This document shows positions 461-34,709 of a stretch of 64,000 nucleotides of DNA, one piece after another (the first letter of the stretch is position 1; the number at the start of each line of letters is the position of its first letter). The position numbers were made by a program, and so were the translations under genes. The notes beneath the pieces are model-generated. The model did not search any database. It saw only the letters and a program-made list of their open reading frames with translations, and was not told the DNA's origin. Origin of the DNA: Candidatus Marinacidobacterales bacterium (lineage in GTDB: Bacteria; Acidobacteriota; Vicinamibacteria; Marinacidobacterales; SMYC01); NCBI GenBank assembly GCA_965237955.1, contig OZ250169.1, positions 7,872,001 through 7,936,000 on the forward strand. The letters run 5' to 3'.

Positions 461-744
461 CTGGTTTTGGTGCCGCGTAACCCGCTCGTGTGCTAGAGTT
501 TGAGCCTGATTTCGAGAGACGCAGTTCTTTCGGCGATGCGGGCTGGGCTGACCACACGGTGCCTGACGTTCAGAGACACCTTCGTGTGCACGCCGACATC
601 CTCATTAATGGCGTTCGCCGACACAGGCAGACCAGCTGACACTAGCATTCAAACACGGCGTAGCAACATATCTGGACTCCTCTAGTCAAGCCCCTTTCTT
701 AATAAATCTTCCATCGAAGCTGCGCATCCATCGCGTCGTGACGA

Positions 745-950
745 GTGGGTCAGACTGCAAACGTATCTTCGGCCTCAGTGAGGAGCGTCTTGGGTGCTCC
801 GGGCCATGATGGAAAATCCGCGCGCGAGGAGCCAATCACTTTGAACGACCTCTTAGGGCCAGTGTTGCTATCGGCTTGACCCCGCGCCGGTCCGACCGGT
901 ACGCCATCAGTTGGATGGGTATCGTCGCAGCCTCTTTTGGAAGGGAAAAA
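745..950 (-). ncRNA. Predicted bridge/seek RNA of the IS1111-type element (limits approximate)
   Basis: Contains segments matching the reconstructed target (861-870, 837-841) and the element's circle junction (806-814, 762-768). Confidence 0.8.
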
Positions 951-978
951 GGAAAACACGAAAGTGGAGCCTCTAAGT

Positions 979-2010
979 CTAAGCGGCCATCGGCGACTGG
1001 AATTCACTCTCGCGGGTGGAGACGGCCCAGACGATCCGGGCGAGTTTGTTGGCGACAGCAATCACGGCCTTGTTGTGTCCCCGCGAGCGGTGGACCTTCC
1101 GAGCCCAGGCGCGGAGCTTGTCGGGCGGGCTCTTACTGACGTTCGCCGCGCGGAGCACGGCGCGCCCGCCCTGGGTGAGGAGCATACGGAGGTAGGAGTC
1201 GCCACGCTTGGTGATGCGTCCGAGGCGGCGAATGTCGCCACTGGAGTTTTCCTTGGGAACTAGGCCGAGGTAGCTCGAGAAGCGGCGCCCCGATGGGAAG
1301 CGGCGAAGATCGCCGACGAAGCCCACGATGGCGGTCGCGGTCAGAAGTCCGATGCCGGGAATGGCGAGAAGTCGTTGGACTTCAGGAAGCTGCTTGGTGA
1401 GCGCCTTGAGCTCGTGCTCGATGCCAGCGCACTTGTCCTTGAGTTCTCGAATCTCGGAGCAGGCATCACGGAGATGCGAACGGAGCACGTCGGGCAAATC
1501 AGAATCAGCGTCTTCGACGAGTTCGAAGAGGGCGGGCACGACGAAGTGAGCGCCCTTTGGGATGATGAATCCGAGTTCGCGCAGGATCCCGCGTACGGCA
1601 TTGATGCGTGCGGTCCGTGTGGAGAGCCATCCTGAGCGCAGGCGATGGAGCGCGGCGAGGCTGTGCTGGTGCACGGACTTAATGGGCACGGGAAGAATCT
1701 CCTCGTTCCTGTAGGCCTCGAGCAACGCTTTGGCGTCGGCGCGGTCGTTCTTGCTCCCGCGTCGATAGGGCCTCACGAGGTGAGGTGGGAGCAGGACGAC
1801 GTCGTGTCCCAACCTTCGGAACGTCCTTGCCCAGAAGTGAGCAGAGCCGCAGGCTTCGAGAAGCACGGTGGCAGCGCTCTGTTTGGCAAAAAACGACACC
1901 AACTTGGGTCGACTCACACGGAGTTGCTTGGACACCTTCCCCGCTTCTCCCGAGATGGCAATCTCGAAGACGTTCTTTGCAAGATCCACAGCGATCGTCG
2001 TATCTTTCAT
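979..2010 (-). CDS. IS110 family DEDD recombinase/transposase
   Basis: IAVDLAKNVF, LLEAC, KNDRADA, YLGLVPKENSSG, ITKRGD motifs; AAGGAGG upstream of ATG at 2010. Confidence 0.95.
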   Translation of the reverse strand: MKDTTIAVDLAKNVFEIAISGEAGKVSKQLRVSRPKLVSFFAKQSAATVLLEACGSAHFWARTFRRLGHDVVLLPPHLVRPYRRGSKNDRADAKALLEAYRNEEILPVPIKSVHQHSLAALHRLRSGWLSTRTARINAVRGILRELGFIIPKGAHFVVPALFELVEDADSDLPDVLRSHLRDACSEIRELKDKCAGIEHELKALTKQLPEVQRLLAIPGIGLLTATAIVGFVGDLRRFPSGRRFSSYLGLVPKENSSGDIRRLGRITKRGDSYLRMLLTQGGRAVLRAANVSKSPPDKLRAWARKVHRSRGHNKAVIAVANKLARIVWAVSTRESEFQSPMAA

Positions 2011-2138
2011 TCGGACTCCTCCTTTTCGATGCGTATTCGACTGACTTTGGCACATCGATGCCGTCTATGTCAGCGGAGGAGTCCATTCCATCACTTGATG
2101 GCGGAAGCACTTGATGGCGGAAGCACCGAATAGAGTCC

Positions 2139-2798: not shown

Positions 2799-4226
2799 CG
2801 TCCTGTGCCAAAACTCGGCCCTTTTAAAATAGGCCATAAATCAGCAACTTAGTGTCTGTGTTTGTGACCGGGCCAAGGGCCGTGGGCTTTACAATCGTCT
2901 TGGGCGGGCGGGTCGTCACCATGCAGATGACCACCTAGTCGAGAGCGAATATCGAAGCGTGTTCCTGAAGCTGTTTCCACGCTACGCCGGTCGAGCCCGC
3001 CGAGGGGCTACCGTCGCCGGCGACAATCTACGCGGCACGGCAGTAGTAGTTGAGAATGCCCCCAAGTCGCTCTCGCGACACGATGGGGCCAGCGTCATTC
3101 GCGCTTGCCGGCAGAGGTGTGAGGAGCTCGTTGCCGAGACCTTGGTGGTTCCGTTCTGTGTGATAGTGCACTACGTATTCGGTTACCGCTGTGCGCAGGT
3201 GTCGCTCACTGAGAGGTACGAAGCGGTCGAGACACTCTCGACGTATGGAGAGAACGAATCTTTCCGCATATGCGTTCAGATTCGGACTATTGGCGGGAAG
3301 GCGCAGGGGCTTCACGCCTGAATCTCTCAACAGCCCACGTACCGCCTCGGTGAATAGCGGGTCCCGGTCGTGGATGAGGTATCGCTTGCCAAGGAGGAAA
3401 CCATCCCACATGTCAGTGAGGTTTCTTGCCACCTGCTTCATCCACTCCCCGTTGGGGTCCGACGTTATCCCACCGATGCACACGCAGCGAGTGGCGATAT
3501 CGATGACAAACAGGACATGGTAGCGGACGAGCCCGAACGGGTTCACAACCTCGACGGTGAACAGGTCTGTCGCAGCGATGGCGCCCCAATGAGCCTTGAT
3601 GAAGGTGCTCCACGACATGCTCTTGCCCCGCTCCGGCGCAGGCGCGATACCGTGCTCGGCGAGGATCCTCTTGATAGTGTTGCGTCCGAGTTCATGTCCT
3701 AGGTTCTTGAGTGCGCCTCGCAGGCGCGTATATCCCCACGTCGGGTTCTCCTGCGCCACGCGCACAATGAGCTCACGGATGTCCTTCGCCGTCGGAGGCC
3801 GGCCTGGGCTCCGGTTCTTGCTGCCATCGTACTTGGCTGCGATGAGGCAGCGGTACCAACGCAGAAGCGTAGCGGGTGTGGCAACGGACGCAATCTGGGC
3901 CAGCGCCTCGCGGCCCAAAGCCTGGGCCTTGACGGCGAGCCTGCGCCGCTCGTCGTCCGAGAGCCTGAGACGCTTGCCCCGAAGCCCGGCTCGGAGCACA
4001 CGGTTCTCCTCTTGCAGGTAGTCGATCACATCCTGCTGCTGGCGGTTGACCCAGCCAGCTAGAACGAGCAGTAGGAATTGCACGTGGTACGTCATCATGG
4101 ATCTGAAGATAACACCCTCGGGCCAGACGATTGTAAAGCCTACGGCCCTTGGCCCCGGCGCAAACACAGACACTAAGCTGCTGATTTATGGTCTATTTCA
4201 AAAGGGCCGAGTTTTGGCACAGGACG
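2799..4226 (-). mobile_element. Complete rve (integrase-core) insertion element with ~100-bp terminal inverted repeats
   Basis: End A in inverted orientation on both sides of one DDE gene; no target-site duplication. Confidence 0.9.
3028..4098 (-). CDS. Integrase-core (rve) DDE transposase, 356 aa
   Basis: [17 protein letters not shown]; AATDLF / IHDRDP / [19 protein letters not shown] triad; [11 protein letters not shown]; [11 protein letters not shown]. Confidence 0.92.
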
Positions 4227-5747: not shown

Positions 5748-7187
5748 GTGCTGGACAGCCAGTTGAGGTCGTTTCAACGGACGTGGATTCGACGTTCTCT
5801 GGCTCCTGGTATTGACTTGGGAGTCCTGAGTATTCCGCGTGGAAACGGAAAAACGGCGTTAGCAGCCCACGTTGTTGCGCTGGCGATGACACCTGGCTCC
5901 AGTCTCTACAAGCCCAACAACGAGGTCGTGTTGATTAGCGGTAGCACGGCTCAAAGCAGGTTCGCTCACAAGTTTGTGAAACGGGAGCTTGAAGAACTGG
6001 GCCTGTACCGTTGGAGCTCGTCTCTAACTTCGATGGGCGCTCGGGACACTAAGAACGGCGTCGAGCTCCGGGTGATGTCGAGCAATCCGCGAACGGCTCA
6101 CGGGCTTGTCGGTGTGTCTATGGTTTTCTGCGACGAACCTTCAAGTTGGGAAAACCAAGCGGGCTCCGATATGTGGGACGCGATTCTCACGGCGCAAGGG
6201 AAGCCGTCGAGCAAACTCCGTGTTCTGGCCGTTGGCACTCGTGCGCCTTCGCGGCCGGGCTCATGGTGGCTTGCGCTTATCGACAAGGGCTCGGGCGGGA
6301 GCGTGTACGTTCAAGAGCTCCGCGGCCGTCTCGATCGCTGGGATTCATGGGCAGAGATTAGACGGTGCAATCCGCTCACTGAAATCTCGTCGGAGTTTCG
6401 CAAGAAGCTGTTGCAAGAGAGAGACGCAGCAAGAAAAGACGAGAGGTTGAAAGCCAGATTTTTGAGTTTTCGGTTGAACCTGGAAAGCACCGACGAATCC
6501 ACAATGCTGCTTACCGTTCCCGAGTGGCGAAAGTGCGAGGGCCGCGAGCTCGGGCCGGACTGCGGTGCGCCAGTGGTCGGCGTCGATTTGGGCTCGGGTA
6601 GGTCGTGGAGTGCAGCCACCGCCGTTTTTCCTGGTGGGCGTGTTGAAGCGGTCGCGATCACAAGCGGGCTTCCCGATATCGCAGCACAGGAAAAAAGAGA
6701 CGTTGCGGTGAGAGGAGCCTATCAACGGCTTGTTGATGAGGGCTCGTTGTTGGTAGACCGTGGCAGGAATATTCCACGGGTTTCCGTTCTGGCCGATGAA
6801 GTTCTTAGGCGATGGCCGGGGCTCGCGTTCTTGGTGTGCGATAGGTTTAGACTCCCCGAGCTCCTGGACGCCTTCGCCGGCAAGGTTCGCATTTTCCCAA
6901 GGGTAACTCGATGGTCGGAAAGCTCCGCCGATATACGCGCTGTACGTGCGCTTGCCTTGGATGGCGAGCTCAGTGTTGAGCCTTCGTCTCGGGCGTTGAT
7001 GCGCGTTGCGCTGGCGGCCGCGACGGTGCAGAGCGACACATCCGGGAATTGCAGACTTATCAAGGCTGGTACAAACCAAACCGAGCGAGATGATCCAGCA
7101 CATGCTTTTGTTCTAGCGGCGGGCGCGTTGTCGAGGTTTCGGAAGTCCGCTCCTCCGGTCCTTCATATCGTGAGGCGGACGGGTTGA
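5748..7187 (+). CDS. Phage terminase large subunit
   Basis: IPRGNGKT Walker A, VFCDE Walker B, VGVDLG nuclease acidic motif, RDDPAHAFVLA. Confidence 0.85.
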   Translation: MLDSQLRSFQRTWIRRSLAPGIDLGVLSIPRGNGKTALAAHVVALAMTPGSSLYKPNNEVVLISGSTAQSRFAHKFVKRELEELGLYRWSSSLTSMGARDTKNGVELRVMSSNPRTAHGLVGVSMVFCDEPSSWENQAGSDMWDAILTAQGKPSSKLRVLAVGTRAPSRPGSWWLALIDKGSGGSVYVQELRGRLDRWDSWAEIRRCNPLTEISSEFRKKLLQERDAARKDERLKARFLSFRLNLESTDESTMLLTVPEWRKCEGRELGPDCGAPVVGVDLGSGRSWSAATAVFPGGRVEAVAITSGLPDIAAQEKRDVAVRGAYQRLVDEGSLLVDRGRNIPRVSVLADEVLRRWPGLAFLVCDRFRLPELLDAFAGKVRIFPRVTRWSESSADIRAVRALALDGELSVEPSSRALMRVALAAATVQSDTSGNCRLIKAGTNQTERDDPAHAFVLAAGALSRFRKSAPPVLHIVRRTG

Positions 7188-34082: not shown

Positions 34083-34298
34083 CTGTCATCAATCTATTCC
34101 GAAACGTCCCGGCGTGCCGATCTTGAGTTCGTTTGTATTTTTGGACACGACGCGTTCGCCGGCACAGGCAGGCCAACTGAAGCAACACTTGATGGCAGAA
34201 GCACCGAAATCAAGCTGTCGTGTGATAGATTCTTGGGTCCGGAAACCGATGCAACGTGTCCACGGGCTTGAGAAATGCCAGGAATTTGAGAGGTTTCA

Positions 34299-34709
34299 AT
34301 GAAAGACAATAAAACGATTGCCGAGCTGACATCGGAGTTGGTGGCACAGGTGGAGAAGCTGCTGCATAAGCTAGTTCCACGAATCACCGCTGTTCTTGCT
34401 GAGCCGGACGCTGCTGAGCCGGACGCTGCCGAGCCAGAGGCTGCCGAGCCGGACGCTGCTGAGCCGGACGCTGCCGAGCCGGACGCTGCCGAGCCAGAGG
34501 CTGCCGAGCTGGAGGTTGCCGAGCCGGACGCTGCTAAGCCAGACGCTGCCGAGCCGGACGCTGCCGAGCCGGACGCTGCCGAGCCAGAGGCTGCCGAGCC
34601 AGAGGTTGCTGAGCCAGAGGCTGCCGAGCCAGAGGCTGCCGAGCCAGAGGCTGCTGAGCCAGAGGTCGACGATGGCGATTCGCAATCCCCGGAAGACCGC
34701 GCAAAGTAA
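34299..34709 (+). CDS. Acidic pentapeptide-repeat protein
   Basis: GAGAGG upstream; short helical N-terminus, then (AEPDA/AEPEA)n. Confidence 0.55.
   Translation: MKDNKTIAELTSELVAQVEKLLHKLVPRITAVLAEPDAAEPDAAEPEAAEPDAAEPDAAEPDAAEPEAAELEVAEPDAAKPDAAEPDAAEPDAAEPEAAEPEVAEPEAAEPEAAEPEAAEPEVDDGDSQSPEDRAK
34398..34666 (+). repeat. 15-bp tandem repeat, about 18 units
   Basis: GC(C/T)GAGCC(G/A)GA(C/G)GCT units. Confidence 0.95.

Follow-up and report, generated by a model that had tools for sequence, protein, structure and literature searches.

An insertion sequence (IS) of ISPa25 type, from the IS1111 group, stands at one position in the right terminal repeat that an IS1-like element shares with its MITEs, and its predicted bridge RNA very probably guides the recombinase to that position by base pairing. 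We studied it in a 64,000-nucleotide stretch of Candidatus Marinacidobacterales DNA (contig OZ250169.1, positions 7,872,001 to 7,936,000), here called the window, and in related copies and genomes. The system illustrates a known mechanism clearly in its natural setting and is not a new one, and it offers a natural experiment in which a likely target switch has been caught within one genome.

The IS occupies positions 669 to 2093 on the minus strand (1425 bp). Its left end (2076 to 2093, minus strand) consists of a subterminal repeat at 2076 to 2086 and a 7-bp extension at 2087 to 2093 that includes an IS-owned CA; its right end (669 to 682, minus strand) consists of a 3-bp extension at 669 to 671 and a subterminal inverted repeat at 672 to 682, with the right donor at 669 to 673. 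The two repeats match at 10 of 11 positions. We set these limits because the repeats and extensions fit the rule applied for the IS1111 group (subterminal inverted repeats of about 11 to 13 bp, with 7-bp left and 3-bp right extensions), which follows the description in PMC11187229. The initial annotation had given a span of 661 to 2127, which covers the IS but also takes in flanking target DNA at either end, together with a 16-bp duplication. Full-length copies in the genome number 17; of these, 10 are identical and one is a 91% variant (L001).

A minus-strand gene at 979 to 2010 encodes a DEDD recombinase of 343 amino acids with matches to PF01548 and PF02371. The protein has both the DEDD (RuvC-like) and the Transposase_20 domains by which the IS110 family is recognized, and it carries D9, E52, D89, and D92 and an SSG at 256 to 258, residues with putative roles assigned by motif. 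Noncoding DNA is longer downstream of the gene (310 bp) than upstream (83 bp), and the IS copies lie at a single site in a single orientation without a true target duplication, all of which are traits of the IS1111 group. The domain matches, an NF033542 score above its cut-off (308.9 bits; cut-off, 140), and the IS1111-type ends bear out the earlier claim of an IS1111-type element. Judged by its sequence, the window element is an IS1111-group IS110 whose closest named element is ISPa25 (47% amino acid identity, the best named match), with which it shares its left end, subterminal repeat, and RNA layout. Its closest relatives are from Candidatus Marinacidobacterales, and the RNA region was matched in 7 of the 31 genomes searched, the source genome included.

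The host of the insertion, named end C in the initial annotation, is the right inverted repeat carried by an IS1-like element and by its MITEs, a terminal repeat found at about 219 ends in the genome. The autonomous host is 1197 bp long (G000:3086457-3087653), with terminal inverted repeats around one transposase gene. A PF03400 search of the genome was empty, and the host transposase was found by reading open reading frames. Because its best match was the IS1 profile NF033558 yet its scores lie under the curated cut-offs (78.8 bits against 100 for NF033558 and 21.2 against 24.1 for PF03400), we call it IS1-like. Members of the IS1 family make target duplications of 8 to 9 bp. None of 37 adjacent host repeat pairs in G000 had a target duplication of at least 4 bp, and no 9- to 10-bp split halves around the host were found genome-wide; rearrangement may have erased the duplications. 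Several MITE classes of 105 to 244 bp share the IS1-like repeat. The remnant in the window (471 to 668, plus strand) is a 244-bp MITE of this family that has lost its left repeat, which stands before 471 in other copies. It matches an empty MITE at G000:704979-705222 at 96.7% over 215 bp and has the repeat and 61 bp of the left end in common with the 1197-bp element.

The left target TAGCAA and the target-derived dinucleotide CA lie at 661 to 668 (plus strand), and the outer part of the host right repeat, with its terminus at 2127 and a 16-bp tandem duplication inside it, lies at 2094 to 2127 (plus strand). The targeted subtype is the right end of the host, in whose autonomous form the transposase gene stops at the TAG of TAGCAA. 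Insertion of the IS, for which parasitism of the other element had been proposed, leaves the host transposase gene intact. The left end of the IS rebuilds positions 19 to 24 of the host repeat with one mismatch, and the rebuilt repeat has 23 of 24 consensus positions.

The bridge (or seek) RNA is predicted at 745 to 936 on the minus strand, with approximate ends and with a target loop followed by a donor loop. The four guides that had been read from the minus strand are all present where they were placed. The left target guide UAGCAACACU (861 to 870) has 6 nt before the dinucleotide, against 7 or 8 in most relatives; the right target guide AAGUG (837 to 841) is followed by a handshake AU (836 to 835) that complements the donor AT, giving a feature at 835 to 841. 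The left donor guide is UUCCAUCAU (806 to 814), and the right donor guide AGAUACG (762 to 768) continues into a handshake UU (761 to 760), which complements the target AA here, giving a feature at 760 to 768. Folding 745 to 950 alone, as had been proposed, was not significant (z, -1.68), and in this single-sequence fold part of the left target guide pairs with the right target guide region. A scan of Rfam gave no meaningful family match to the RNA region. In the RNAalifold consensus of 33 relatives, two stem-enclosed internal loops hold the four guides, and the position of the guides relative to such loops had been named beforehand as a point on which the bridge RNA reading could fail. Across the 28 named pairs of this covarying consensus, 94% of cells are paired and 16 pairs have two-sided changes. 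None of 500 shuffles reached the observed pairing and slid controls gave 37 to 43%, figures to be read in light of the structure having been derived from the same alignment. RNA run X15 had low-depth coverage of parts of the IS, too low to show transcription.

We compared guides with targets, reducing 40 aligned rows to 20 distinct guide sets with both ends. Each comparison took the best of three registers, for observed and shuffled pairs alike, and one mis-picked end was kept in. The left guide agreed with the left target at 0.93 (shuffled, 0.58) and the right guide with the right target at 0.86 (shuffled, 0.37), and 0 of 10,000 shuffles, which ignore kinship among the sets, were as high as observed. 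With the mis-picked row replaced, the right donor pairs with its guide in 20 of 20 sets, with three alternative sequences covarying. The first handshake base of the target loop pairs with donor position 7 in every set as well and covaries in L052. The proposed logic of a target loop and a donor loop thus held up, with the guides in two internal loops and tracking target and donor across the 20 sets. A donor-loop handshake was rejected as a family rule; it holds in 5 of 20 sets, the window element among them. A decayed orphan RNA region with the left guide TAACTTTCG was seen at L002:1464-1648 (G000 about 5560960-5561150), without recombinase or ends.

Removing the IS restores TAGCAA-CA-CTTGATGG, as had been claimed, and the empty site, with 666 joined to 2108, is present in contigs of two of four public runs. 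The comparison site offered near 34181 is empty and reads AAGCAA-CA-CTT, with one mismatch. When the sites of other copies were listed, 18 of the 25 right-end junctions in the genome adjoined TAGCAA-CA, 6 adjoined IS-internal sequence, and 1 was a diverged variant; left ends adjoined the host repeat in 25 of 26 cases. Perfect-match ends were occupied at 18 of 19 places, and ends with CA-CTT and one or two left mismatches at 0 of 89; among 194 empty ends, only 1 was a perfect match. Some of the occupied sites depend on one another (the 18 stand on 14 distinct 40-nt host flanks, and truncated copies give no left flank to compare), and the contrast in occupancy gave a Fisher p below 1e-15 even at 14 distinct flanks. 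Two further exact 11-mers outside the repeat census were empty. In a related genome, TAGCAA was found at 29 of 30 loci with a readable junction and CGCCAA at the remaining one. A sister lineage is looser and is found also at guide-matching sites outside the repeat (L088, L090, L091), which argues that sequence and not a host protein picks the site. In the in-genome variant L001, the guides are changed and the target is changed to match. With nearly all perfect ends filled and guide-target agreement across the 20 sets, the central proposal of guide-directed insertion into the multicopy end of another element stands, and the pattern is an apparent case of single-base discrimination among about 200 near-identical ends.

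Near-identical IS copies stand on those 14 flanks in three host types, and one IS variant (L083, L084, L099) is found in three host types as well. These observations, together with the sequence-reading step that filled perfect sites and empty near matches require, speak against the copies being mostly passengers, in which one or a few insertions would have come first, with the composite then multiplied by the IS1-like transposase or through segmental duplication. Such spread would fit the nearly complete rebuilt repeat, the one outer flank common to four copies, and the ten identical IS copies; we consider it unlikely. The same filling of nearly all perfect right ends could be taken to mean that the IS caps the right ends of the very abundant IS1-like family and in this way acts, or has been retained, as a brake on it, and one of three near-full-length host transposase genes does end in an occupied repeat. 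However, the host repeat is nearly rebuilt, and in L102 a host end has cut into an IS1111 body, so the host enzyme was active afterwards; a braking role is very unlikely. Of 10 empty TAGCAA ends, 9 have an altered core or right target, but the overall figure for altered TAGCAA ends (9 of 28) does not clearly exceed that of untargeted ends, which gives no hint of an arms race. We rejected an arms-race reading of the mutated empty sites, which survivor bias explains. Also rejected was the truncation at window position 1787, common to several loci and genomes, as proof of rebuilt-end mobility, this being a hot spot for an unrelated end.

L001 is a 91%-identical sister in the same genome, with guides TAACAATCG and GCAGCG and the site TAACAAT-CA-CTG. 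Its reconstituted site folds attC-like, with 20 outer pairs, against 0 outer pairs at the window site. In this ad hoc hairpin test, based on attC box motifs, 30 sites were scored: 10 were attC-like (18 or more outer pairs), 7 were intermediate, and 13 were not, with 9 loci unscorable; by the same test, the window IS lacks the attC site that marks the IS1111-attC group. An integron integrase lies in the genome, about 1.9 Mb away. No empty copies of the L001 target were found with three patterns. In a 37-row tree, four repeat-targeting rows (monophyly, 97/74) group with L001 (100/97) and then with L005 (100/99), whose guide also starts with TAAC and which is without readable ends. According to PMC11187229, ISPa25, ISKpn4, and ISPst6 are IS1111-family elements that target attC. 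The attC-like site of L001, the tree, and the attC targeting of ISPa25 make a switch from attC to the IS1-like end likely. Retargeting likely came about through a few substitutions and a shift of one base in register, and it is likely recent. The left end of the IS, being common to ISPa25, is older than the switch. Compared with ISPa25, then, the window IS targets an IS1-like right repeat instead of attC, has a left guide with 6 nt before the dinucleotide, and has 17 full copies in one genome.

The CA at 2092 to 2093 belongs to the IS and the CA at 667 to 668 to the target. The element had been described as having a CA core, which does not hold for the family: the two junction dinucleotides are unequal in 16 of 20 related guide sets and also in ISPa25, where they read CG and CA. 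The dinucleotide on the right-end side is CG, GG, or TG in 18 of 20 sets, and that on the left-end side is CA in 17 of 20. An identical core is therefore no family requirement, though it is true for the window copy, where CA at both junctions is a coincidence. The one mismatch noted earlier in the right donor guide is present, but it is systematic and matches the target-side dinucleotide. In all 20 sets, the right donor guide reads CG; its second core base agrees with the target side in 18 sets and with the donor side in the other 2. In one sister lineage, the right donor guide AGAUAUG is the exact complement, mutated to read CA. The mismatch thus reads CG, the dinucleotide of the presumed ancestral target.

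Recombination of the strictly reciprocal kind modeled for IS621, over a CA core common to target and donor, would agree with the CA at both junctions of the window element and with the matched cores used in work on IS621 and IS622. Against it are the unequal dinucleotides of the guide sets and of ISPa25 and the case of L088, whose target guide is the same and whose two junctions read CG and CA, and we regard it as improbable. We infer that the junction pattern agrees with the no-duplication view of IS1111 ends (PMC11187229) and with top-strand transfer (bioRxiv 2025.10.25.684509) and that it departs from matched-core practice for IS621 and IS622. If unequal cores are truly tolerated, this clade would relax the matched-core rule of bridge editing designs. 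The junction patterns also bear on a disputed point, whether exchange is reciprocal and involves four strands or proceeds by top-strand copy-out.

Further evidence on the mode of transfer comes from duplications anchored at the cut sites. In the window, the 16-bp tandem duplication (2094 to 2109 and 2110 to 2125) begins exactly at the first base after the left-end CA, and the same duplication is found at two further loci with this flank in common. From 27 duplication rows, we kept 15 distinct joints after removing same-joint repeats, a probable single-base variant, a neighboring MITE, and an attC array. Right-end duplications account for 11 joints (29 to 565 bp, most with the RNA gene) and left-end duplications for 4 (16 to 79 bp). 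All 15 joints end in C-N (background for C, 0.28), and 10 of them end in CA. The joints resemble the left guide weakly (0.53 versus 0.42; p about 0.001), and their match to the right target or right donor was not significant among these 15. The best account of the duplications, though about as likely as not, is that they are one-sided top-strand transfers fixed by replication, and not reciprocal events or assembly errors; a near-cognate or polymerase-made 3' end would have been joined to an enzyme-bound 5' end. The constant C in the first position of the dinucleotide, the enrichment for the left guide, and the presence of duplications at both junctions and in three assemblies favor one-sided transfer, as does the count of reciprocal deletions, with a single candidate (L107) beside 11 duplications at the right end, although deletions may be harder to recognize (L087, L093, and L103 are ambiguous). 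Short reads gave one more joint, from 1201 to 669 and with CG at its end, in one contig at depth 5 with 34 letters on the short side. One-sided transfer also fits the top-strand and direct-transfer results of bioRxiv 2025.10.25.684509. However, a full insertion into a similar site within the IS, with a homologous deletion afterwards, would leave the same right-end structure. Two larger arrays were seen: at L003 (G000:C1:3051912-3054422), three right-end fragments of 396, 292, and 396 bp, each with the RNA gene, stand ahead of a full IS, and at G000:C1:2861923-2862345, seven tandem units of 48 to 62 bp each begin with the outer host repeat at the cut site.

The mechanism that we propose is as follows. 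Copy-out would join the left end (…TTCCAT-CA) to the right end (TATCT…), and the circle joint would form a promoter (TTGACT, 18 nt, TG-extended TGGAAT) from which both the recombinase gene and the RNA downstream of it could be transcribed. This promoter-like sequence was read by eye from the predicted junction; a promoter scan of the linear element found none. The 2093-to-669 circle joint was not in contigs of four public runs, which as contigs cannot show absence. The target loop would open TAGCAACA^CTT while the donor loop holds the circle joint, and the top strands would be cut 3' of the dinucleotide and swapped, with handshake pairing helping. With such a cut, the target would keep its own dinucleotide on one side and the IS would bring CA to the other. 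The lineage would descend from attC-targeting elements retargeted by a few guide changes and the register shift. The left end would restore the host repeat to within one base, with the cut just after the host stop codon, and the host may therefore stay mobile. A broader joint reading is, to us, doubtful: that ISPa25-type recombinases perform top-strand transfer without a shared core, that the donor loop reads the target dinucleotide, that guide registers of 6, 7, or 8 nt are tolerated, that one-sided duplications anchored at cut sites record the copy step, and that the lineage moved from integron attC sites to an IS1-like end, which the left end of the IS itself rebuilds, so that it rides a 200-copy family without disabling it.

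IS4321 and IS5075 are IS1111 elements that, as Partridge and Hall reportedly described in 2003, insert into the terminal repeats of another mobile element. The window IS differs in its host, an IS1-like IS and MITE family instead of Tn21, and in that its end rebuilds the repeat to within one base. Targeting of the ends or genes of other mobile elements is already known from IS4321/IS5075 and ISEc21, and natural redirection is known too. In PMC11187229, ISEc11/ISXne4 and ISEc21/ISMch6 are cases of natural redirection, close relatives with changed guides and targets, and ISEc21 targets another IS, in IS3-family transposase genes. In contrast to those pairs, the two versions here, 91% identical, coexist in a single genome, and the change of target is one of class, from an attC-like site to an IS end. 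The window IS is like IS621 in having two internal loops, four guides, and a target-loop handshake with donor position 7, and it is unlike IS621 (PMC11208160, PMC11208158, and PMC13626964) in the RNA being downstream of the gene, the long subterminal repeats, and a shared core not being required. The IS621 protein gave a weak C-terminal match to the window recombinase and nothing more. Top-strand copy-out and direct transfer by CazIS110-1 (bioRxiv 2025.10.25.684509) and the modular circles of ISPpu9 (PMC12288879) resemble the present case in one-sided transfers, with tandem repeats as by-products, and in RNA-bearing submodules; the window lineage differs in variable-length partial duplications from either cut site, fixed in genomes and without dedicated internal end boxes. 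The literature searched yielded no report of IS110/IS1111 elements in IS1 ends or of partial duplications anchored at cut sites, and the target-list supplements of PMC11187229 and PMC11208160 may hold cases.

Other elements were seen in the window and in relatives. A second, more abundant end (…CGTCCTGTGCCAAAACTC…) lies at 206 to 275 and in at least 20 more places in the window, with 486 matches in G000, and is linked to IS481-like rve genes such as that at 3028 to 4173. In several genomes, it is found repeatedly at fixed positions inside the IS1111 element (window positions 1787 and 884), and it in turn repeatedly contains IS1-like ends at one of its own positions. In G009, L153 and L159 are related ISs with an CAACTGCG-type left guide, and their left ends adjoin a different repeated target. 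Other multicopy IS110-family elements, at about 28 to 34% identity, lie at G000:C1:4337923, 5210036, and 5883373-5888855, among others, with three copies clustered within 6 kb. Elsewhere in the window, a dual-specificity phosphatase open reading frame at 2139 to 2852 looks truncated, its 3' end entering the abundant second end; a terminase large subunit-like open reading frame at 5748 to 7187 lies amid IS remnants; and an open reading frame at 34397 to 34680 contains a 15-bp repeat array.
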